32,000 nt of DNA from positions 1,410,001-1,442,000 of the forward strand of contig NC_013202.1 of NCBI RefSeq assembly GCF_000023965.1, written 5' to 3'. Origin of the DNA: Halomicrobium mukohataei DSM 12286. GTDB taxonomy: Archaea; Halobacteriota; Halobacteria; Halobacteriales; Haloarculaceae. The translations under genes were made by a program, and so were the position numbers. Of this stretch, positions 3,556-25,730 are shown in pieces; position 1 is the stretch's first letter, and every line of letters starts with the position of its first letter. Under the pieces are notes generated by a model. That model was not told the DNA's origin. It ran no database searches and saw nothing but the letters and a program-made list of their open reading frames with translations.

Positions 3556-4569
3556 ATGCACTACCGACGACTCGGTACCACGGGACTGCAGGTATCGCCG
3601 ATCTGTCTCGGGACGTGGCGCTTCGGCAAGGAACACGAGGACAGCGGCGTCGTCGAGACGGACCGCGAGGACGCCCACGAGCTGCTCGACGCCTTCGCAG
3701 AGCGCGGCGGCAACTTCATCGACACCGCCAACGGCTACGGCGGCGGGGACTCCGAGCGGTGGATCGGCGAGTGGCTCGAAGACCGGGACCGCGAGGACTA
3801 CGTCATCGCCTCGAAGTGCTTCTGGTCGACGGTCTCGCGCTTTCAGGAGAACCTCTCGAAGAAGAACGTCCGCGCGGAGGTCGAGGGATCGCTCGACCGG
3901 CTGGGCACCGACTACCTCGATGTTCTCTACCTGCATCGGTTCGACGACGACACGCCGATCGAGCAGACGCTGCGCGCCGTCGACGACCTCGTCAGCGAGG
4001 GGAAAGTCCACAACGTCGGCCTGTCGACGGCCGACGCCTGGAAGCTCACAAAGGGACTGTGGAAGGCGGACGTGAACAACTACGAGGCCTTTACCGTCAC
4101 GCAGCCCCTCTTTCACGCCGCCTACTACGAGGACGTGGCCGAGTACCTCGACGTGTGTGCCGACCAGAATCTCGCGGTCTGTCCGTACTCGCCACTGGCC
4201 GGTGGCTTCCTCACTGGCAAGTACGAGCGTGCGGGCGACGGGACTTACGAGCTGGACGCGCCCGAAGACACCCGCGCCCAGTTCGACGATCGCTTCCTCG
4301 ATTTCTACGTCTCGGAACGGGGCTGGCACGTCCTCGACGAGGTCCGAGCCGTCGCCGAGGAGGTCGACGCCTCGCCGGCACAGGTCGCTCTGCGGTGGCT
4401 AATGGACCAGCCGGACTTCGACTGCGTCCCGATCGTCGGCGCGCGGACCGTCGACCAGCTCGACGAGAACCTCGGGGCGATCGACGTGACCATCTCCGAC
4501 GATCAGTTCGACCGGATCTTCGAGGCCCGCTACGACGACGACGGCAGCCTGTACAGGACGAACGCCTAG
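3556..4569 (+). CDS. aldo/keto reductase family oxidoreductase
   Basis: Within ORF 3418..4569. I chose the start MHYRRLGTTGLQVSPICLGTW, a typical AKR N-terminus. Internal AKR-like blocks are present (FIDTANGYG, DVLYLHRFD, VGLS). Confidence 0.9.
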   Translation: MHYRRLGTTGLQVSPICLGTWRFGKEHEDSGVVETDREDAHELLDAFAERGGNFIDTANGYGGGDSERWIGEWLEDRDREDYVIASKCFWSTVSRFQENLSKKNVRAEVEGSLDRLGTDYLDVLYLHRFDDDTPIEQTLRAVDDLVSEGKVHNVGLSTADAWKLTKGLWKADVNNYEAFTVTQPLFHAAYYEDVAEYLDVCADQNLAVCPYSPLAGGFLTGKYERAGDGTYELDAPEDTRAQFDDRFLDFYVSERGWHVLDEVRAVAEEVDASPAQVALRWLMDQPDFDCVPIVGARTVDQLDENLGAIDVTISDDQFDRIFEARYDDDGSLYRTNA

Positions 4570-8455: not shown

Positions 8456-8595
8456 CCGGCGAAACACCACAGTACTGTCGCGGTCGGGCGTCCGCTACGG
8501 TCGCGGCCATCGGGGTGTCCGGATGTTGGGGGCACTGGCAGCTGCCCGATCGGTGTCGCCGTCGTACTGCCGTCCCGGCCGTCGAGGGATCACAT

Positions 8596-10041
8596 ATGCG
8601 ACGACGGACGTACGTACGATCACTGTCGGCGCTCGTGGGGCTCACGGGCGTCGGCGCGGCATCGGCACAGCAAGAGTACCCGACGTGGGATGCGAGCGCG
8701 ACCTACACGGAGGGTGACCGGGTCGTCTACGAGGGGACGATCTACGAGGCCCAGTGGTGGACACAGGGCGACGAACCCGGTAGCACCCAGTGGGGACCGT
8801 GGACCGTCGTCGACTCTTCGGACGGTGGCTCCGACGGGGGGAGTGACGGAGGTAGCGACGACGGGAGCGACGACGGCACGGACGGTGGCAGTGGGGAGAC
8901 CGACTATCCGGCCTGGGACGCCGGCACCACGTACACCGGCGGCGATCGGGTCGTCTACGAGGGGACGATCTACGAGGCCCAGTGGTGGACTCGGGGAGAC
9001 GAGCCCGACGCCGGTGGACCGTGGGACGAAGTCGGTCCCGCAGACGGTGGCGGTGGGGACGACGGCAGCGGTGACGACGACAGCGACGATTCAGACGGGG
9101 GCACGGGCACACCGGGCGCGATCCCGGAGAACGTCTTCGCCCCGTTCGTCGACGTGGCACTGGACGACCAGCAGGCGCTCACCGACGCGGTCTCGAACGC
9201 CGGAACGAAGTACTTCACGCTCGCGTTCGTCAACTCCGCCGGGGGCGAGCCGGCGTGGGCCGGCGACTCGAACCTGATCGTCGGCGAGAGCGGAGCACGC
9301 CTCGACATGCAGGGCCAGATCGCCGATCTCAGGGCCGACCACGGCGGCGAGGTCGTCGTCTCCTTTGGCGGTCTCAGTGGCACGTACCTCGCGGAGGCGG
9401 TGACGAGCGCGAGCACGCTCAAAGAGAAGTACGCGACCGTCGTCGATCGGCTCGACGCGCAGTTCATCGACTTCGACGAGGAACAACACATCCGGGACAA
9501 TCCGGAAGTCATCGAGCGTCGGAACGAGGCACTCGCTCTGCTCCAGGAGGAGTACCCGGAGCTGTCGATCTCGTACACGCTGCCGGTGATGCCCAGCGGG
9601 CTCCCCGAGCAATCGAGCAACGACGTGCTGTTCGTGCTCGAAGACGCGGCCCAGCGCGGCGTCGAACTCGACGCCGTGAACCTCATGACGATGAACTACG
9701 GCTCGGCGTTCGAACTGAACGGCGAGACCGTCGTCGACGCCGCCGAGAGCGTCCACGGACAGCTGGCCGACATCTATCCGGAGCGGTCGGCCGCCGAGCG
9801 CTGGAACGCGATCGGCCTGACGCCGATGATCGGCCAGAACGACGTGGACTCGAACGTGTTCTACCCCGAGGACGCACAGACGGTGCTCGATTTCGCCCAG
9901 GAGAAGAACCTCCGGTGGCTGTCGTTCTGGGAGCTCGTCCGCGACAACGGCGAGGGGAGCGCGCTCTACGAGAGCAGCCAGATCGATCAGGAACCCTACG
10001 AGTTCTCGTCGATCTTCGACGAGTTCACGAGCGACAGCTGA
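8596..10041 (+). CDS. secreted GH18-family chitinase with two N-terminal CBM5/12 chitin-binding modules
   Basis: Within ORF 8515..10041. The start is at the Tat signal MRRRTYVRSLSALVGLTGVGAASA. There are two copies of the Y..WD....Y..GDRVVYEGTIYEAQWWT.GDEP module, separated by a low-complexity linker rich in Asp, Gly and Ser. The catalytic domain has VVVSFGG and an intact DxDxE motif (FIDFDEE), plus TPMIGQND. Confidence 0.85.
   Translation: MRRRTYVRSLSALVGLTGVGAASAQQEYPTWDASATYTEGDRVVYEGTIYEAQWWTQGDEPGSTQWGPWTVVDSSDGGSDGGSDGGSDDGSDDGTDGGSGETDYPAWDAGTTYTGGDRVVYEGTIYEAQWWTRGDEPDAGGPWDEVGPADGGGGDDGSGDDDSDDSDGGTGTPGAIPENVFAPFVDVALDDQQALTDAVSNAGTKYFTLAFVNSAGGEPAWAGDSNLIVGESGARLDMQGQIADLRADHGGEVVVSFGGLSGTYLAEAVTSASTLKEKYATVVDRLDAQFIDFDEEQHIRDNPEVIERRNEALALLQEEYPELSISYTLPVMPSGLPEQSSNDVLFVLEDAAQRGVELDAVNLMTMNYGSAFELNGETVVDAAESVHGQLADIYPERSAAERWNAIGLTPMIGQNDVDSNVFYPEDAQTVLDFAQEKNLRWLSFWELVRDNGEGSALYESSQIDQEPYEFSSIFDEFTSDS
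8719..8990 (+). repeat. 44-nt perfect direct repeat (8719-8762 = 8947-8990) inside the chitinase gene
   Basis: Both copies read cgggtcgtctacgaggggacgatctacgaggcccagtggtggac. They encode the core of the two CBM5/12 modules. Confidence 0.9.
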
Positions 10042-11044: not shown

Positions 11045-11860
11045 TCACCCGGTCCGAAAGGACAGATCCAGCGTCGGCGCGGAGTGAGTGAGACTGCCCA
11101 TCGAGAGCACATCGACGCCGGTCGCGGCGTAGTCGGGGACCGTCTCGACGGTGATCCCGCCCGAGGCCTCGGTGAGTGCGTCGGCGTCGCTCTCAGCCAC
11201 GAGATCGACGGCTTCCCTCGTTTCTTCGGGCGTCATGTTGTCCAGCAGAACGATGTCTGCGCCGGCCTCGGCGGCCAGCGGAGCGTCGGCTGACTCCTCG
11301 ACTTCCACGTCGAGTTGGGTGGCAAACGAGGCTCGCTCGCGGAAGTGCTCGATCGCGCCTTCGAGGCCCATCTCGGCGACGTGGTTGTCCTTGACCATCA
11401 CCATATGAGAGAGGTCGAGCCGGTGGGTGTCGCCGCCTGCCGCGACGACAGCTCGCTTCTCGACGCCGCGGAGGCCGGGCGTGGTCTTGCGCGTCGCGGC
11501 GATCCGCACGTCCTCGTCTACTTCGCGGGCGGCGGCGACCGCGGCGTCGGTCTTCGTCGCGATGCCGGCGGCGTGGCCGGTGATGTTGACCGCCACGCGC
11601 TCGCCGCGTAGCACCGCTTGGGCCGGCCCTTCGACCCGGAGGACCACGTCGCCCGGCTCGATCAGTGTACCGTCGTCGGCGCGCTCGGTCACGGCTACGT
11701 CGAGGTAGTCGAAGACGGCTGCGGCGGCGTCGAGCCCTGCGACGACGCCGGCCTCCTTGGCGACGAGTCGCCCGGTCGTCTCGCCCGGCACGTCGTTGGT
11801 CACGTCGTGATGGCCCACGTCCTCGCGGAGCCACCGCTCGATGTCGCTGTCGGTGAGCAT
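11045..11860 (-). CDS. nadC: nicotinate-nucleotide pyrophosphorylase (quinolinate phosphoribosyltransferase)
   Basis: Within ORF 11045..12445. The true start is MLTDSDIERWLREDVGHHDVT at 11860. Its ATG shares one base with the nadB TGA (TGATG). QPRTase blocks are present: TRKTTPGLR, GGDTHRLDLS, MVKDNH, LLDNM. Confidence 0.9.
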   Translation of the reverse strand: MLTDSDIERWLREDVGHHDVTNDVPGETTGRLVAKEAGVVAGLDAAAAVFDYLDVAVTERADDGTLIEPGDVVLRVEGPAQAVLRGERVAVNITGHAAGIATKTDAAVAAAREVDEDVRIAATRKTTPGLRGVEKRAVVAAGGDTHRLDLSHMVMVKDNHVAEMGLEGAIEHFRERASFATQLDVEVEESADAPLAAEAGADIVLLDNMTPEETREAVDLVAESDADALTEASGGITVETVPDYAATGVDVLSMGSLTHSAPTLDLSFRTG

Positions 11861-13512
11861 CAGTCGTCGGCCTGTGTTTCGGGCTGCTGGGCCGCTTCGT
11901 CGTCGGTCACCACGTAGTGAGTGCCGACGCTCTCGTCGTTCTCCAGTGCGTGGCGAGTCACCAGCAGCGCCGTCACGCTGGCGTTGCGCAGTTCGTACAG
12001 CGACCGGGAGGTACGGGTGCGGACGTAGGCGTCGACCTCGCCCTTGAGCCGTCGGAGCACCCCCAGCGCCCGGTTCAGGTCTGCCGGATCGCGTTCGAGG
12101 CCGACGTACTCCTCGGTCACGCGGCGCAGGCGGTGGAACTTCTGGCGGGCGAAGTCCTCGGGCAGATCGGGGTCTCGCTCCAGCAGGTCCGGTGCCTCGA
12201 TGACCTCGGCCTCGTTGCCGGCGGCGTCGGCACCGGCGCGAAGGCCCCAGACCAGCCCTTCGAGCAGGCTCGTCGAGGCCAGTCGGTTCGCACCGTGGAC
12301 GCCGGTGCGAGCACACTCGCCGACGGCGTACAGGCGGTCGAGGCTCGTCTGTCCACGGTCGTCGACGGCGACGCCGCCACAGAGGAAGTGTTCGGCGGGT
12401 GCGACCGGGATACCCTCGGTCCAGTCGACACCGCGGTCCTCGCACTTCTCGACGAGCCCGGGGAACTCGCTCTCGAAGTCCAGCGGGCTCACGTCCAGCA
12501 CGACGGTGCCAGTCGCCTCGCGCTCGGCGGCGACCGCACGCGCGACCACGTCGCGAGGAGCGAGTTCGGCGTCCGTGTGGTAGTCTGGCATGAATCGCTC
12601 GCCACCGGGAGACTCCGTCTCCCGAGCCTCCGAGTCAGAAGACTCGGAGACGTCGCCGTTCCGGAGGAGTGCGCCCTCGCCCCGGACGGCCTCGCTGAGG
12701 AGGAAGCCGTCTTCCCCGTCTTCTGCGGCATAGGCGGTCGGGTGGAACTGAACGAACTCCATGTCCTCGACGTCCGCGCCAGCAAGGGCCGCCATGGCGA
12801 TGCCGTCGCCGGTCGAGCCAGTCGGATTCGTCGAGTGGGTGAACAGGTCACCAATACCGCCGGTGGCCAGCACGGTCGCGCCGGCGTAGACGGGCGAGTA
12901 CTCGCCGTCGGATTCGAGCATCGCGCCGTGGACCCGCCCCTCGTGGCGGATCAGATCGAGCGCGGCCGTGTCGTCTCGCATCTCCACGTTCTCGTGATCG
13001 TCGAGATAGTTCAGGAACGGGATATGGATGTGCTTGCCCGTCGCGGCGTCGACGTGGAGGATTCGGTCCTCGCTGTGGGCGGCCTCGCGTCCGAAGTCGA
13101 ACTCCTCGTCTCCGTCGCCGTCGTTCTCGCTCACGGGTCGTTCCTCCCCGTTCGCCCGTTCCGAGGACTCCCGCTGGTCGTCCTCGCCCTCGACATCAAA
13201 TTCCACGTCCAGCGTCTCGACGAGCACGTCACGGACTGCCTCGTTGGCGTTCTCGACGAGCACGTCGACCGCGTCGGGGTCGGCCGTGTTGTCAGAGGCC
13301 GCGAGGATGTCCTGCTTGAACTGCTCGGGGTGGTCGCGGGCGACGGCGATGCCACCCTGTGCCCACCAGGAGGAAGCCCCCTCGGGCCGCGTTGCCTTTG
13401 TCGCGACGACGACGTTCTCGCCCTGGCGGGCGGCGGCGAGTGCCGCGGCGAGGCCGGCAATCCCGGAGCCCACGACGAGCACGTCAGTCGTCTCGTGGTC
13501 TGTTCCACTCAT
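11860..13512 (-). CDS. nadB: L-aspartate oxidase
   Basis: 550 aa. The FAD-binding N-terminus is DVLVVGSGIAGLAAAL. Further blocks are AQGGIA, ATGG, GDGIAMA, FHPT and HGANRLASTSLLEGLV. Confidence 0.95.
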   Translation of the reverse strand: MSGTDHETTDVLVVGSGIAGLAAALAAARQGENVVVATKATRPEGASSWWAQGGIAVARDHPEQFKQDILAASDNTADPDAVDVLVENANEAVRDVLVETLDVEFDVEGEDDQRESSERANGEERPVSENDGDGDEEFDFGREAAHSEDRILHVDAATGKHIHIPFLNYLDDHENVEMRDDTAALDLIRHEGRVHGAMLESDGEYSPVYAGATVLATGGIGDLFTHSTNPTGSTGDGIAMAALAGADVEDMEFVQFHPTAYAAEDGEDGFLLSEAVRGEGALLRNGDVSESSDSEARETESPGGERFMPDYHTDAELAPRDVVARAVAAEREATGTVVLDVSPLDFESEFPGLVEKCEDRGVDWTEGIPVAPAEHFLCGGVAVDDRGQTSLDRLYAVGECARTGVHGANRLASTSLLEGLVWGLRAGADAAGNEAEVIEAPDLLERDPDLPEDFARQKFHRLRRVTEEYVGLERDPADLNRALGVLRRLKGEVDAYVRTRTSRSLYELRNASVTALLVTRHALENDESVGTHYVVTDDEAAQQPETQADD

Positions 13513-21334: not shown

Positions 21335-23785
21335 CTACTGCCAGTCGACCAGATCAGACTGGTAGTAGTTGACGTTCGCCTGCGCCCAGCGTGGGCCCTG
21401 CAGGGCCAGACGCTGGCTGAACGCGTCGAAGTCGCCGATATCGGACGACGACGACCAGCCCAGTTCCGCGATGGCCGCCAGCCGCGGGAACACCATGTAC
21501 TCGATGTCGTCCTGGGTCTCGACGAACTCCGTCCACAGCGGTGCCTCGACGCCGGCGACCGAGGACTCGTCGACGCCGTCGATGTAGCTGCCCGGATCCC
21601 AGGTGTAGGCGTCCTCGACCGAGACCGGTCCCGCCCAGTCCTGGCCCACACCGTCCTGATAGTTGTAGTCTTGATCGAGGTACGCGAGGTGGGCGGGCGA
21701 GGCGATGACGTCGTTGCCCTCGCTGGCCCGGGCCGCGACCTCCGGGGCCTGTGCGTCGGTTCCCCAGTAGTGGAGGAGCGCAGACGTAACGGGCTCCGTG
21801 CTGGCGATCTGGTGCCATCCGATGGGGGTCTTTCCGGCGTCCTCGATCATCGGGAGGACCGCGTCGATGAACTCCTCGTACTTGGCATCCGACAGCACGT
21901 CGGCTTCGTCGCCTCCGACGTGGAAGTACGGGCCGTCCGTCATCTCGGCGACCGCGCTGATGACGTCGGCTGCGAACTGGAGACTCGTCTCCTTGTGCTC
22001 GTCGTCCATGCACAGCGTGGTGTCGCCGACGTTGATGCCGGTGTCTTCCTCGCGTTTCGTGTCGTCACAGTTCAGTTCCGCGTACGACTCCAGGGCCGCC
22101 CCGGTGTGGCCGGGCATGTCGATCTCCGGGACGACCGTCATGTGGCGATCCTGCGCGTACTGGATGATCTCCTGGTAGTCGGCCTTCGTGAAGTAGCCGC
22201 CGGGCCCGCCGTCGACCTCCGAGTCTGCCCCTTCGTCGGTGAGGTTCGGCCAGTCGTCGATCTCGATACGCCAGCCCTGGTCGTCGGTCAGGTGCAGGTG
22301 CAGGTGATTGATCTTGTAGGCCGCCACCTGGTCGATGAACTCCTTGACGACCGACTTGTCGAAGAAGTGCCGTGCCACGTCGAGCATCGCGCCGCGGTAC
22401 TCGAAGCGCGGTGTGTCGGTGACCGAACCGCCGGGGACGACCCAGTCGACGGACTGATCGGTGTCGGCCTCGACCGCCGCCGGGAGCACCTGGCGAAGCG
22501 ACTGGACGCCGTAGAACAGCCCCGCGGCCTCGTTGGCTCGGATCGTGACGCCGTCGCTGTCGACGCTCATCTCGTAGCCCTCGTCGCCGACCGACGAGGG
22601 AGCGCCGTTGAGCAACAGCGCGATGCTGTCCGCGGACGCGGACGAGCCACTCTCGACGGACAGATCGAAGCCGGTCGCCGGCCCCAGCAGGTCGGCGAGG
22701 TACTGTCCGACTTCGGTCCCGCTGCCCTCGGCGACGATCGTCGTCGAGGACGTGATCTCGAAGCCGTCGTCGGCGGTCGTGATGTCGCCCGGCTTCGGCA
22801 CGAGATCGGCCAGCGTCTTCGTGACTGGCTCGGGCGGCCCACAGGCGGTGATCTGCTTCCAGGGGCCTCCATCGCTACTGGGCTCGTCGCCCTTGCTCCA
22901 CCACTTGGCTTCCCAGAGCGTGCCGTCGTAGATGACCTGGTCGCCGCCGGTGTACGTCGTTCCGGAGTCCCACTCCGAGACGCCGCTACACTCGCCGCCG
23001 TCGCCGCCGACGCTGACTGTCGTCGCGTTGGTGTCGGTCGCACCGTCGTCGTCGGTGACGGTGAGTGTGATCGTGTACTCGCCCGACGAGTCGTACGTGT
23101 GGGTCGCGGTCTGACCGCTGGCGGTCGCGTCGTCGCCGAAGTCCCAGGCGTACGACGAAATCGACCCGTCGGCGTCCGAGGAGTCGGCAGCGTCGACGGT
23201 CACCGACTCGCCCGTCGTCGGCGAGGACGGCGAGACGGTGAACGACGCGTTCGGAGCCTCGTTGTCGCTTTCCGAGACGGACACCGTCGTCGATGCCGTC
23301 CCGCTCGCGCCGTCGTCGTCGGTGACGGTGAGTGTGACCGTGTAATCGCCTGCAGAGCCATACGTGTGACTCGCGGTCTGTCCGGTCGCCGTGTCGCCGT
23401 CGCCAAAGTCCCAGGCGTACGAACTCACGGAGCCGTCCGGATCGGACGAGCCCGACGCGTCGAAGGTGACGGACTCGCCCGGCGCGGGTGTACTGATGCT
23501 CGCCGTGAACGACGCGACCGGAGCCTCGTTCTCGGTGTCGCCACTACAGTCGCCGATCTTCGTCCAGACCGAGTCGCTCTCTTCGGGTTCGTTGGCCTGG
23601 GTCCACCACTCGGCTTCCCAGAGAACGTCGTCGTAAACGACGCGGTCGCCGCCGTTGTAGGCGGTGCCGGATTGCCACTGCTGAACGTCGCTGCAATCTG
23701 CTGCCGATGCGGTCCCGCTGACGCCGATCGCCAGCGCAGACAGTGCCGATGCCTTCCGTAGGATGTTGCGTCGTGTCTCTCTCAT
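21335..23785 (-). CDS. secreted GH20 beta-N-acetylhexosaminidase with CBM5/12 - PKD - PKD - CBM5/12 N-terminal modules
   Basis: 816 aa. The Tat signal is MRETRRNILRKASALSALAIGVSGTASA. There are two W..G..Y..GD.V.Y....WEA.WW modules and two PKD modules (F.AS.S.D.DG.I..Y.WDFGD....G....H.Y...G.Y.V.L.V.DD.G). The GH20 core has HLHLTDDQGWRIEI and FHVGGDEA. Confidence 0.9.
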   Translation of the reverse strand: MRETRRNILRKASALSALAIGVSGTASAADCSDVQQWQSGTAYNGGDRVVYDDVLWEAEWWTQANEPEESDSVWTKIGDCSGDTENEAPVASFTASISTPAPGESVTFDASGSSDPDGSVSSYAWDFGDGDTATGQTASHTYGSAGDYTVTLTVTDDDGASGTASTTVSVSESDNEAPNASFTVSPSSPTTGESVTVDAADSSDADGSISSYAWDFGDDATASGQTATHTYDSSGEYTITLTVTDDDGATDTNATTVSVGGDGGECSGVSEWDSGTTYTGGDQVIYDGTLWEAKWWSKGDEPSSDGGPWKQITACGPPEPVTKTLADLVPKPGDITTADDGFEITSSTTIVAEGSGTEVGQYLADLLGPATGFDLSVESGSSASADSIALLLNGAPSSVGDEGYEMSVDSDGVTIRANEAAGLFYGVQSLRQVLPAAVEADTDQSVDWVVPGGSVTDTPRFEYRGAMLDVARHFFDKSVVKEFIDQVAAYKINHLHLHLTDDQGWRIEIDDWPNLTDEGADSEVDGGPGGYFTKADYQEIIQYAQDRHMTVVPEIDMPGHTGAALESYAELNCDDTKREEDTGINVGDTTLCMDDEHKETSLQFAADVISAVAEMTDGPYFHVGGDEADVLSDAKYEEFIDAVLPMIEDAGKTPIGWHQIASTEPVTSALLHYWGTDAQAPEVAARASEGNDVIASPAHLAYLDQDYNYQDGVGQDWAGPVSVEDAYTWDPGSYIDGVDESSVAGVEAPLWTEFVETQDDIEYMVFPRLAAIAELGWSSSSDIGDFDAFSQRLALQGPRWAQANVNYYQSDLVDWQ
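23009..23530 (-). repeat. tandem duplication encoding two PKD modules (about 255 nt each, diverged)
   Basis: Roughly aa 86-170 and aa 175-259 of the hexosaminidase align. Nucleotide runs such as gtcgtcgtcggtgacggtgagtgtga recur. Boundaries are approximate. Confidence 0.7.
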
Positions 23786-23970
23786 GTGTTCGAATGTCGC
23801 CTTCGGCAGTCGCTCGCTGGCCGGGTCGGGCCGACCGATAGTCCGCGCGACCGCACGGTGTCCACATCCCCCAACCGGGCCGTTGCGATCCGAAGCGTCC
23901 GTCGTCGATCGTCTCCCTGTACTCGAACTGACGGATCACACGCCAGTCAACACTAGCCACGAACCCTCAC

Positions 23971-24007
23971 GTATTAGTACATTTCCACTGTATTTTTATA
24001 TAAAGAG
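23971..24007. promoter_or_regulatory. AT-rich block with TATA-like sequences readable on both strands (tatttttatataaag)
   Basis: It is the only strongly AT-rich patch in the 667-bp spacer. It lies about 190-220 nt upstream of the hexosaminidase ATG (23785), which implies a long leader. It could equally drive a plus-strand transcript antisense to the icd 3' region. Confidence 0.35.
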
Positions 24008-24146
24008 TTGTAGATGTGTATCGAACTGGGCGGCGTCTGGCGAGACCGTGCCAGTCGGGCGAGAAAGTGAACGGACGGGAATGGATGTGTCCAGTCTGCA
24101 GGGACTGCTGTGGACGATCGCACCGATCCGAGACGAGAGAACAGTC

Positions 24147-24473
24147 GAACGGCGACGACGTCGGTGGCGCGAGCGTCTCGCCGTTCACGCGGTGACGCTA
24201 CGCGAGCCAGGCGACTCGCTTACGCGAACTTCTCGATGTCCTCAGAACGCAGGACGTTCTGACTGCCCGAAAAATCGTCTTCAGGCCAGTTCTTCGATGT
24301 TCTGACGGCGCAGCCGTCAGAGGACGAGAAACGGTCTACGACAGTTTCTCGATGTTTTCGCGGCTACGCCGCGAAAGCCCGAGAAGCTTGCGTACGCAAG
24401 CTTCTCGATGTTCCCGGAAGTCTCCGATTTCCGGGCGCACGAAAAGTTGGCCTTAGGCCAACTTTTCGATGTT
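24147..24473 (-). repeat. array of six copies (one genuine, five extragenic) of the icd 3'-terminal 21-nt core, each embedded in hairpins; period 55-61 bp
   Basis: Cores lie at 24453-24473 (true end), 24392-24412, 24336-24356, 24281-24301, 24220-24240 and 24165-24185. All contain cgatgt or a variant. See the findings for minus-strand translations and stems. Confidence 0.85.
24441..24467 (-). terminator. perfect 12-bp hairpin with the icd TAA stop codon as its 3-nt loop, ending in a U4 run on the transcript
   Basis: gaaaagttggcc (24441-24452), tta (24453-24455), ggccaacttttc (24456-24467). On the minus-strand RNA this reads GAAAAGUUGGCC-UAA-GGCCAACUUUUC. Confidence 0.45.
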
Positions 24474-25730
24474 TTCGACGATGGCGTCCGAGTACTCCTC
24501 GGTGCCGAGCTTCTCGGCGTCTTCGAGCTGGCGTTCGAGGTCGTAGGTGACCGTGCCCGAGGAGATCGTCTCCTCGACGGCGTCGCGAACGAGGTCGGCT
24601 GCGTCCTTCCAGCCCATGTAGTCGAACATCAGACGGCCCGAGAGGATCATCGCGGTCGGGTTGGCCATGTTCTGGCCGGCGCGTTTCGGGGCCGAGCCGT
24701 GGACGGGCTCTGCGAGCACGCGGGCGTCACCGAAGTTCGCGCCGGGCGCGATGCCGAGGCCGCCGATCTGTGCGCCGGCGGCGTCCGAGAGGTAGTCGCC
24801 GTTGAGGTTCGGCATGGCGAGAACGCTGAACTCGTCGGTCCGGAGCTGCATCCACTGGAGCATCGCGTCGGCGAGTCTGGACTCGACCATGACGGCGTCC
24901 TCGGGAATGTCGATCTCGTCCTGGGTCTCCCAGAGAGAGTCGGGCGCGGCGAAGACCTCGTCGTCGGGGTACTCCTCGTCGGCGACTTCCATGCCCCACT
25001 CGGTGAACTGGCCCTCGGTGAACTTCATGATGTTGCCCTTGCCGACGAGCGTGACCTTGTCGCGGTCGTGCTCGATGGCGTAGTCGATGGCCTTGCGGAC
25101 CAGCCGCTTGGAACCGAACTCGGTGATCGGCTTGATGCCGATGCCGATCGGGCCGTCGTGCATCACGTCGTCGAAGCCCATGTCCTCCTCGACGAACTCC
25201 CGGACCTGCTCGACCTCTTCGGTGCCGGCCTCCCACTCGATGCCGGCGTAGACGTCTTCCGTGTTCTCACGGAAGGTGACCATGTCCATCTCCTCGGGCG
25301 CTTTCATCGGCGACGGGACGCCGTCGAGGTAGTAGGTCGGTCGGACGTTCGAGTAGAAGTCGAGCGTCTGGCGCAGCGCGACGTTGAGCGAGCGGAAGCC
25401 AGCGCCGACCGGGGTCGTCAGCGGCCCCTTGATGGCGACGCGGTGCTCGTCGATCGCGTTGACGGTGTCGTCGGGGAGGTTCTCGTCGTACTTCTCTCGG
25501 GCGGACTCGCCAGCGAAGACGCGCATCCACGAGATCTCGCGGCCTGTGGCGTTCGCGGCGGCCTCCAGGACCTTCTGGGCGGCCGGTCCCACGTCCTTCC
25601 CGATGCCGTCCCCGTGGATGATGGGGACGATCGGATTCTCAGGAATATCGAGTTCGTCGTTGTCCTCGTCGACGACCTCGATCTTCTCGCCTTCGGCAGG
25701 CACCTCGACCTTGTCGTAATCGTAGCTCAT
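24453..25730 (-). CDS. icd: isocitrate dehydrogenase (NADP-dependent)
   Basis: Within ORF 24453..26348. The true start is MSYDYDKVEVPAEGEKI (25730). Blocks present: IIHGDGIGKDV, IKGPLTTPVG, FRSLNVALRQ, NLNGDYLSDA, GGLGIAPGAN, EPVHGSAPK. A TATA-like box lies 24-29 nt upstream. Confidence 0.95.
   Translation of the reverse strand: MSYDYDKVEVPAEGEKIEVVDEDNDELDIPENPIVPIIHGDGIGKDVGPAAQKVLEAAANATGREISWMRVFAGESAREKYDENLPDDTVNAIDEHRVAIKGPLTTPVGAGFRSLNVALRQTLDFYSNVRPTYYLDGVPSPMKAPEEMDMVTFRENTEDVYAGIEWEAGTEEVEQVREFVEEDMGFDDVMHDGPIGIGIKPITEFGSKRLVRKAIDYAIEHDRDKVTLVGKGNIMKFTEGQFTEWGMEVADEEYPDDEVFAAPDSLWETQDEIDIPEDAVMVESRLADAMLQWMQLRTDEFSVLAMPNLNGDYLSDAAGAQIGGLGIAPGANFGDARVLAEPVHGSAPKRAGQNMANPTAMILSGRLMFDYMGWKDAADLVRDAVEETISSGTVTYDLERQLEDAEKLGTEEYSDAIVENIEKLA

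Follow-up and report, generated by a model that had tools for sequence, protein, structure and literature searches.

In Halomicrobium mukohataei DSM 12286, four extra copies of the last seven codons of icd, the gene for NADP isocitrate dehydrogenase (ICDH), lie downstream of that gene, each accompanied by a hairpin that spans the stop codon (hairpin 1) and by a second hairpin (hairpin 2). This array lies in a stretch of 32,000 nucleotides (nt) of NC_013202.1 (positions 1,410,001 to 1,442,000), which was analyzed as a whole and is called the window here; coordinates refer to it. We tentatively favor reading the array as a stack of superseded icd 3' ends that are joined by short palindromic repeat modules and were built by recombination. 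No earlier description of such stacked icd ends was found in the literature consulted, and because the same construction is present in many related genera, it appears to be a recombination hotspot that has received little description, not an isolated structure. If this reading is true, the sequence of the array would record the frequency and the sources of past replacements of a core metabolic gene in haloarchaea.

Anatomy of the array

The icd gene codes for 425 amino acids on the minus strand, from 25730 to 24453 (Pfam Iso_dh, E = 2e-87), and ends, in the sense direction, with AAC ATC GAA AAG TTG GCC TAA. The five copies of this end are spaced 61, 56, 55, and 61 nt apart in the same direction. 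The units share one grammar, which runs from RACATC through GAR AAR CTN NCN and a stop codon to a complementary 3' arm, a linker of 3 to 5 nt, hairpin 2, and the next RACATC. In hairpin 1 the last codons pair with the 3' arm, and the stop codon sits in the loop. The features are as follows, from the gene outward.

24453-25730, minus strand: icd, with stop codon TAA at 24453-24455 and the final seven codons, AACATCGAAAAGTTGGCCTAA, at 24453-24473
24440-24468, minus strand: hairpin 1 of unit 0, the true gene end; it spans the stop codon, which is central between 14-nt arms that pair perfectly (100%; 24440-24453/24455-24468); its 5' arm consists of the last four to five codons, its 3' arm of GGCCAACTTTTCG (T4 then C)
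24413-24435, minus strand: hairpin 2 of family C, CCCGGAAATC gga GACTTCCGGG; 10-nt arms (24413-24422/24426-24435) paired at 90%; linker TGCG (24436-24439) before and AACATC after, in the sense direction
24392-24412, minus strand: pseudo-end of unit 1, AACATCGAGAAGCTTGCGTAC (N-I-E-K-L-A-Y; stop codon gone)
24380-24407, minus strand: hairpin 1 of unit 1, a perfect 28-nt palindrome (24380-24393/24394-24407)
24356-24376, minus strand: hairpin 2 of family B, TTTCGCGGC gta GCCGCGAAA; perfect 9-bp stem (24356-24364/24368-24376); GGC linker before, (A)ACATC after; included in the family B alignment
24336-24356, minus strand: pseudo-end of unit 2, AACATCGAGAAACTGTCGTAG (N-I-E-K-L-S-stop)
24325-24351, minus strand: hairpin 1 of unit 2, 11 of 12 pairs (24325-24336/24340-24351)
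24301-24321, minus strand: second copy of hairpin 2 of family B, TCTGACGGC tgc GCCGTCAGA; perfect 9-bp stem (24301-24309/24313-24321); TCC linker before; included in the family B alignment
24281-24301, minus strand: pseudo-end of unit 3, AACATCGAAGAACTGGCCTGA (N-I-E-E-L-A-stop)
24268-24296, minus strand: hairpin 1 of unit 3, degraded; the 3' arm ends in T5C (GATTTTTCG)
24242-24262, minus strand: hairpin 2 of family A, TCAGAACG tcctg CGTTCTGA; perfect 8-bp stem (24242-24249/24255-24262); GGCAG linker before, GGACATC after; the same hairpin occurs in H. katesii
24220-24240, minus strand: pseudo-end of unit 4, GACATCGAGAAGTTCGCGTAA (D-I-E-K-F-A-stop), presumably the oldest unit; common to H. katesii
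24172-24219, minus strand: distal flank, common to H. katesii and outside the repeat grammar; two weaker hairpins at 24202-24219 and 24172-24199

All the stems in the original prediction, which had been made from the letters of the window, exist, and several are longer than claimed. The palindrome of unit 1 is perfect, as described, but it covers 28 nt and not 26 (24381-24406). A stem with 10 of 11 pairs was indeed located at 24326-24350, and its fuller extent is the one listed above. The stem at the icd end, also perfect, was put at 12 bp, which understates its arms. The degraded state of hairpin 1 in the two distal units was correctly recognized (3 and 5 pairs), as was the common layout of hairpin 1 around the stop or pseudo-stop, core, hairpin 2, and spacer; the spacer after hairpin 2 is, however, 3 to 4 nt when the full stems are used, and not 5 nt. 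The core itself, TTCTCGATGTT, is the reverse complement of the codons for N-I-E-(K) together with the module linker.

The array stands out statistically in the window. The core has six matches with at most one mismatch, four of them in the array, where 0.29 is expected for the window. Hairpin rows of at least 8 bp number 17, compared with 5.4 in shuffled sequence, and 8 of the 17 fall within the array, which is the only hairpin cluster of the window. As RNA, the 351-nt region folds with a z score of −8.0, and none of 100 shuffles folded equally well. Tandem Repeats Finder did not report the array when run on the window, because the units are too diverged, and Rfam 15 returned only chance-level matches for the array (E = 0.39 and 1.3), far under gathering scores. 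An identical ICDH and the same spacer of 668 nt between icd and the next gene are present in H. mukohataei assembly GCA_009217585.1 and in five sequencing runs.

Occurrence across haloarchaea and the three families of hairpin 2

The icd locus of the window was compared with those of 80 other haloarchaeal species, giving 81 loci. The arm of hairpin 1, the linker, and hairpin 2 directly follow the icd stop codon in approximately 33 of them, and 23 of these module-bearing loci contain at least one extra pseudo-end (one to four). The arm is almost never present in icd loci without hairpin 2. Since the two come together, hairpin 1 is part of the module and not a universal icd terminator. Arrays are missing in more than half of the species, close relatives among them.

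The stems of hairpin 2 had been regarded as unrelated in sequence but equivalent in position. They fall instead into three conserved families that recur across genera and occur in the window in the order C, B, B, A from the gene outward. The consensus of family A is GCAG-TCAGAnnn..nnnTCTGA-CGACATC, that of family B is GGC/TCC-TCTGGCGGC nnn GCCGCCAGA-ACATC, and that of family C is TGCG-CCCGGAAATC nnn GATTTCCGGG-AACATC. The hairpins measure 19 to 29 nt, their conserved linkers measure 3 to 7 nt, and all of them have the same orientation. Each family was found in several taxonomic families (Haloarculaceae, Natrialbaceae, Halobacteriaceae, and Haloferacaceae); family C was seen at icd loci L011, L018, L022, L038, L045, L029, and L034. 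The number and order of the units vary, and other genomes display C,B; B,C; A,A,B; A,B,A; B,A; and B,B,A. Adjacent units often belong to one family, as with B,B in the window and A,A in loci L054, L061, and L070. Across the window and approximately 560 kb around icd in the 80 species, the B, C, and good A hairpins are found only between +14 and +140 after the icd stop codon.

Array size differs even between near-identical genes. The ICDH of H. katesii is 99% identical to that of the window, and its locus has a single A unit, identical to the most distal unit of the window, versus four units here. The hairpin 1 arm of H. katesii resembles a hybrid of those of units 0 and 3 of the window, which suggests that its single unit may have arisen by deletion between repeats. 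Distal to the array, H. katesii also has approximately 49 extra nt, CGGCTTGACACCCTGCCAGCCGTGAACGGGTGGCTTCCGCCCGCTACGT (locus L001, around 4350 to 4400), that are absent from the window at 24172-24205.

Coding signature and decay of the extra ends

The 28 pseudo-ends collected from these loci retain the pattern of coding sequence. Variation at third codon positions amounts to 0.93 bit versus 0.45 bit at first and second positions (permutation P = 0.013), and the motif x-I-E-x-L-x-stop is still readable in 22 of the 28. The third-position variation and the readable motif indicate that the pseudo-ends were once real gene ends. In addition, the quality of hairpin 1 declines with distance from the gene: gene-end copies have 10.1 pairs, internal units 9.2, and last units 5.7. 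Beyond the last pseudo-end of Halosimplex comes the native flank, without an arm, as it is also seen in relatives that have no array. Together, the decay gradient and the Halosimplex flank indicate that units were added next to the gene, and that old ends were shifted outward and decayed.

The junction between module and old end can be placed to within a few nucleotides. The first codon of a pseudo-end that follows an A module is always GAC or GAT, neither of which is used by the real genes of the set. This is explained by the G stemming from the linker of the module itself, which locates the junction inside ACATC.

Covariation of the stems

Homologous hairpins were placed in gap-free alignments, and the cells with compensatory changes were compared with those in 500 shuffles. 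Hairpin 2 of family A has double changes in 7 of its 10 pairs and 27 compensatory cells (8.4 in shuffles, none of the 500 as high); family B has double changes in 4 of 9 pairs and 16 compensatory cells (4.6 in shuffles, again none of 500). The alignments are 96% paired for family A and 95% for family B, percentages that are inflated by ascertainment, as the instances were collected with a hairpin finder, and this weighs against the stack reading; the double changes are unaffected by it. When the arms of A and B were slid as controls, pairing dropped to 25 to 58%. In hairpin 1, the outer pairs show double changes in six of eight cases, with the alternatives GAG/GAA and AAG/AAA mirrored by C/T in the arm.

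These compensatory changes, seen with orthologous and related loci in hairpin 2 of families A and B and in hairpin 1, uphold the proposal that structure is kept over sequence. The stems are conserved in the orthologous regions, contrary to the lack of conservation that would have counted against the original prediction. The evidence for covariation comes from other genomes and not from the four units of the window, because these units belong to different families. The compensatory covariation between each arm and its partner that had been read from the array itself accordingly holds across species; among the units it largely reflects inheritance from different former gene ends. If the array is a stack of former ends, covariation analyses in general call for caution, as pairs that look compensatory within one array may be inherited from different source alleles.

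The palindromes might also be kept by mutation and not by selection, if quasi-palindrome template switching during replication copied a change in one arm to the other. We consider this quite improbable. It would agree with the several perfect palindromes and the scarcity of wobble pairs (89 to 92% Watson-Crick versus 2 to 7% G.T), and a symmetric process at the level of DNA also fits the lack of strand asymmetry between G.T and A.C mismatches in family B and hairpin 1, in instances collected with the biasing hairpin finder. It leaves unexplained, however, both the persistence of three families with conserved linkers across taxonomic families and the decay of distal hairpin 1 beside an intact hairpin 2, and it is silent on how the array was formed.

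Related hairpins away from icd

A metagenome scan for the A hairpin followed by GACAT yielded 23 loci, of which 6 are icd arrays and 17 are copies of a distinct conserved element. The layout of this element is GTGGTT[CGArAG..CTyTCG]TCATT[C-type hairpin]TTGCA[A hairpin]GACATCA[CGAGAG..CTCTCG]AACGAC. It is approximately 125 to 130 nt long, contains four hairpins, and is bounded by inverted-repeat ends (GTsGTTCGArAG), with variable stems and conserved linkers. The A and C hairpins share their linkers (GCA-hairpin-GACATC) between the icd arrays and the dispersed element. Moreover, the foot of icd hairpin 1, CGArAG..CTyTCG, is also that of the outer hairpins in the element, whose GACATCA-CGAGAG mimics the AACATC-GAGAAG of icd. 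Rfam gave no family match for the element.

The metagenomic loci of the element (L096 to L118) represent at least six gene contexts with unrelated genes. The neighbors are CDC48, the gene for RNase P RNA, and open reading frames (ORFs) resembling, by their N-terminal sequences only, cofC, lpdA, a HAD phosphatase, and an RND exporter. One of these loci, L116, contains a tandem of [hairpin]TAGCA[hairpin]GACATC with a period of approximately 58 nt. A full copy lies on Halomicrobium urmianum plasmid NZ_CP084091 at 284799-284918 (L121, 2501-2620; 85% identity, E = 6e-30). In two loci, L106 (1-52 and 200-700) and L107 (3480-4033), the 3' end of archaeal RNase P RNA lies approximately 500 nt upstream of the element, which is followed by direct repeats of GGCTGGGGCTTTGGAGGTGTTCACC alternating with TTTATAAAT boxes; by their sequence, these repeats look like promoters or origin-recognition boxes.

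Partial matches to the element occur in the flanks of IS605-type tnpB and tnpA/tnpB elements. On plasmids of Halobacterium sp. DL1 (L119, 2440-2560) and Halovenus salina (L120), A-like and C-like hairpins with the same linkers are found inside the 5' or 3' flanks of such elements. In Halovenus, the 3' flank of a tnpB beside tnpA includes a 58-nt unit of two hairpins, GTCGTC[hp]TGATCA[hp]AACGAC, approximately 100 nt inside the right end. The A-like and C-like hairpins are internal in both flanks, and the terminal palindromes are different ones (CCTCCGCG..CGCGGAGG and ..GGTCAA). Haloterrigena turkmenica pHTUR01 has a lone intergenic A-type hairpin at 169846-169872 (L085, 4001-4027), a weak match (E = 0.8) with GGACAT after it and unrelated sequence beyond; its distance to orc1/cdc6 is approximately 1.5 kb, and an IS6 transposase is its neighbor. 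Matches of the array query to Halocatena plasmids were due to chance.

These occurrences bear on the origin of hairpin 2. It had been proposed that the extragenic copies gained or kept structure, whereas the equivalent segment of the gene, which codes for SDAIVE, pairs only weakly. A gain of structure from this segment is contradicted by A and C, which are present with the same linkers where icd is not close by (the dispersed element and IS605-type flanks), and also by a B-like hairpin found away from icd, downstream of a CDC48 gene.

Origin of the array

The recombination model starts from the exchange of icd alleles. The ICDH sequences (loci L001 to L080) form two allele classes, with approximately 75% versus 85 to 99% identity to that of the window. 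These classes split Natrinema, Halobiforma, Haloterrigena, Halorubellus, and Halorussus, yet the gene after icd is the same GNAT acetyltransferase gene in either class, which indicates that icd alleles were replaced in situ by recombination. Recombination with incoming alleles is frequent in haloarchaea, whose gene exchange is known to be promiscuous. Every module ends with a copy of the conserved icd core ACATCGARAA, so that DNA with an icd end and a module could recombine with the resident gene at this point. For an incoming allele with at least one module, the left crossover would fall in icd and the right one in the core, which would place the new end, arm, and module beside the gene body, and the displaced resident end would move outward and decay, while unequal recombination between cores would delete units again. 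Joining would probably proceed by ordinary homologous or microhomology recombination with no dedicated enzyme, and the hairpins would be retained because they act as single-strand structures. Such a model accounts for proximal growth, for intact pairs derived from different sources, and for the spread of the modules across families without a dedicated enzyme.

Besides the ascertainment mentioned above, several points weigh against the model. The core common to modules and gene measures only 11 to 20 nt, a short length for homologous recombination to be efficient. The point at which hairpin 2 meets the core is the same to within 1 nt in all three families, a precision that a site-specific or structure-guided process would more typically give. 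The order B-B-A of hairpin 2 is common to the window and L110, a close metagenomic relative, but the hairpin 1 copies and pseudo-ends in between are completely different; inheritance therefore does not keep the units together as fixed blocks, and a simple ratchet fails here. Furthermore, the origin of the first junction between module and core is left unexplained, and the terminator role discussed below is itself deduced from sequence.

A more far-reaching form of the recombination model, which we regard as doubtful but worth stating, treats the modules as a self-propagating "gene-end hitchhiker," that is, a palindromic cassette that includes the conserved terminal codons of an essential gene and spreads and stacks through icd allele exchange. 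Such a cassette would need no transposase or integrase of its own, the array would document earlier allele replacements at icd in readable form, and the four-hairpin element might be either an array fragment turned mobile or the source of the cassette.

The serious rival to recombination is structure-guided single-strand transposition, although on balance it seems unlikely. Here the units would be miniature mobile palindromic elements of the PATE, short mobile repeat, or REP/BIME kind, inserted 3' of ACATC by a transposase that recognizes structure (IS200/IS605 TnpA or RAYT-like); the hairpins would be the recognition structures of the enzyme, and only copies that restore the C terminus of ICDH would be tolerated. 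This would fit the stems that covary between conserved linkers, and the occurrence of A and C with identical linkers both in the element of approximately 130 nt bounded by inverted repeats, with its at least six gene contexts, and in the flanks of IS605-type tnpB/tnpA. The tandem grammar of L116 and the 58-nt element in the Halovenus insertion sequence point the same way. ACATC immediately precedes every unit, and the G in GACATC is part of the module; ACATC is also the end of the module itself, and the same pattern is predicted by recombination at a shared core. Precedents exist in Haloquadratum walsbyi, where PATEs, 52-bp terminal-only PATEs, and short mobile repeats (SMRs) of 80 to 120 bp were reported without target duplication, the mobilization of the SMRs being called enigmatic (PMC3119063). 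Several observations speak against transposition, however. No A, B, or C module was found away from icd in the window or the surveyed surroundings of icd, and ACATC alone is far too frequent to account for insertion exclusively at icd. The pseudo-ends bear the coding signature of different alleles, which is not expected from one element. The hairpins differ from the terminal palindromes of the IS605-type elements examined, and the window has no transposase gene.

Two further explanations have lower standing. A functional multi-hairpin icd 3' untranslated region (3' UTR), formed by in-place tandem duplication and serving as a fail-safe terminator, stability element, or source of small RNA with stems under compensatory evolution, appears improbable to us. 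This is in essence the view of the original prediction, which also named an array of protein-binding sites as a possible role. The strong predicted fold, the covariation across species, the frequent identity of family in adjacent units, and the usefulness of insulation from the next gene, which has the same direction, would all suit it, and so would 3' arms of hairpin 1 that end in T4 to T5 and then C, the terminator motif of Haloferax, where hairpins can terminate transcription (PMC7237163). The arrays are nevertheless dispensable, being missing in more than half of the species, and their size differs fourfold between H. mukohataei and H. katesii; distal decay speaks against selection on the entire array, the order of families differs by genome, and the same modules exist away from icd. 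Very unlikely, and disfavored here, is the possibility that the units are attachment-site scars of integrative plasmids or proviruses that used the icd 3' end as attB and supplied a replacement end in attP. The proximal position of new ends, the distal position of old ones, and the sharp homology boundary at the core would be expected from such scars, and the weak match on pHTUR01 might be counted in their favor. Against them, a second core copy, or a distant pseudo-end that could flank an integrated element, was found within 3 kb past the array in none of the 80 loci. Among the best 25 of 58 families that Pfam searches gave for 87 representative downstream ORFs, only housekeeping families appear, with no integrase or other mobile-element family. 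Scans of 2.9 million viral contigs with the pseudo-end pattern and with the family C and family A hairpins returned nothing or unrelated chance matches, and 50,697 phage records gave no match. Each integrated element would also need a precise deletion down to approximately 40 nt.

Other candidates were set aside because their defining features do not fit. For integron attC sites, the plus-strand boundaries (..GATGTT|CCCGG, |TTCGC, |CTGAC) do not match GTTRRRY, and no integrase is encoded in the window. Xer/dif sites, CRISPR, C/D-box small RNAs, and casposon target duplication misfit in motif or geometry, as judged from the sequence. A TnpB guide RNA with hairpin A as the last scaffold stem and the icd end as guide was also rejected, as the A-like hairpin is approximately 55 nt inside the right end of the IS605-type element examined.

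Relation to known repeats and integration sites

Bacterial repetitive extragenic palindromes (REP/BIME) typically occur in more than 100 copies per genome, contain a GTAG or CGTC tag, and are mobilized by RAYT/TnpA-REP. As with the icd modules, they are short GC-rich hairpins after stop codons (20- to 40-nt palindromes), in which a few hairpin types form mosaics with short conserved linkers. Their copy number likewise differs among close relatives, and roles in termination and in protection of mRNA 3' ends have been proposed. The hairpins of the icd array, however, all face the same way and have no GTAG or CGTC tag, the linkers being GCAG (A), TGCG (C), and GGC/TCC (B). Within the surveyed DNA, their copies are essentially bound to one gene end and are not numerous, each unit carries a copy of the last codons of the gene, and the host is an archaeon. 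We know of no RAYT in this host.

Phage 21 and the e14 element integrate at icd of Escherichia coli and duplicate its 3' end. The likeness is considerable, since the gene is the same, the substitute 3' end is placed by the gene body, the old end is left downstream as a pseudo-copy, and the copies differ at synonymous positions. In E. coli, the copies are separated by a kilobase-sized prophage that has an integrase, and approximately 165 bp of gene end are duplicated, whereas here the copies are 55 to 61 nt apart, four deep, and linked to hairpin modules, and no connection to an integrase or virus was found. An integrase or prophage origin like that at E. coli icd is unlikely, because there is no distant core copy, no mobile-element family among the downstream families listed above, and no viral or phage match.

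By their published description, the Haloquadratum PATEs and SMRs are a close archaeal parallel, being palindrome-dominated units of 50 to 130 nt that lack target duplication, are associated with IS605-type flanks, and are lost through deletion between short direct repeats. By description, the four-hairpin element, at approximately 125 to 130 nt, may fit the size and the inverted ends of SMRs, which are further characterized by insertion into palindromes of PATE/IS605 elements. Dissimilarities also exist, as the icd-array hairpins do not match the terminal palindromes of the IS605-type elements examined, and duplication of a gene end by the units is undescribed for PATEs or SMRs. If the stack reading is true, the modules would constitute a family of archaeal short palindromic repeats, kin to these Haloquadratum elements, whose role in recognition or at 3' ends could be tested.

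Putative role at the icd 3' end

The hairpins most likely act as a putative terminator or 3'-end-protecting stem for icd. Such a role in termination or 3'-end protection is the most economical proposal because of the T4-T5-C motif and of the downstream gene, a GH20 gene oriented as icd. In Haloferax, a T stretch followed by C is the terminator motif, and termination may be assisted by a hairpin (PMC7237163). A T run followed by C is present in unit 0 (T4C), in unit 3 (T5C), and in approximately half of the gene-end arms of other species. The resemblance to Haloferax-type terminators extends to the stable stem that precedes and to the frequent position of T4 to T5 and then C right after the stop codon; it is limited by the T run being here inside the stem and not after it, and by many units having only TTCTC. 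It can be argued that, at a given moment, the proximal structures are the only ones that matter, because arrays are missing in over half of the species, differ between near-identical genomes, and decay distally.

Other features of the window

The other genes of the window are ordinary and encode GH20 and GH18 chitin enzymes, nadA/nadB, iPGM, asparaginase, methionine aminopeptidase, and a histidine kinase; no mobile-element gene is found among them, whether for a transposase or for an integrase. The region is bracketed by two secreted chitin-related enzymes, GH18 with CBM5/12 (8515-10041) and GH20 with PKD and CBM5/12 (21335-23785). Between the array and GH20, approximately 200 nt upstream of the GH20 start, is an AT-rich stretch (23960-24015) with a TATA-like box, TTTTTATATAAAG, which from its sequence could be usable on either strand, including antisense into the array. 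An ORF for an FAD-dependent oxidoreductase, nadB-like (11860-13512), holds two adjoining perfect hairpins of 8 and 9 bp at 12606-12649, the sole other hairpin pair of the window besides the array.

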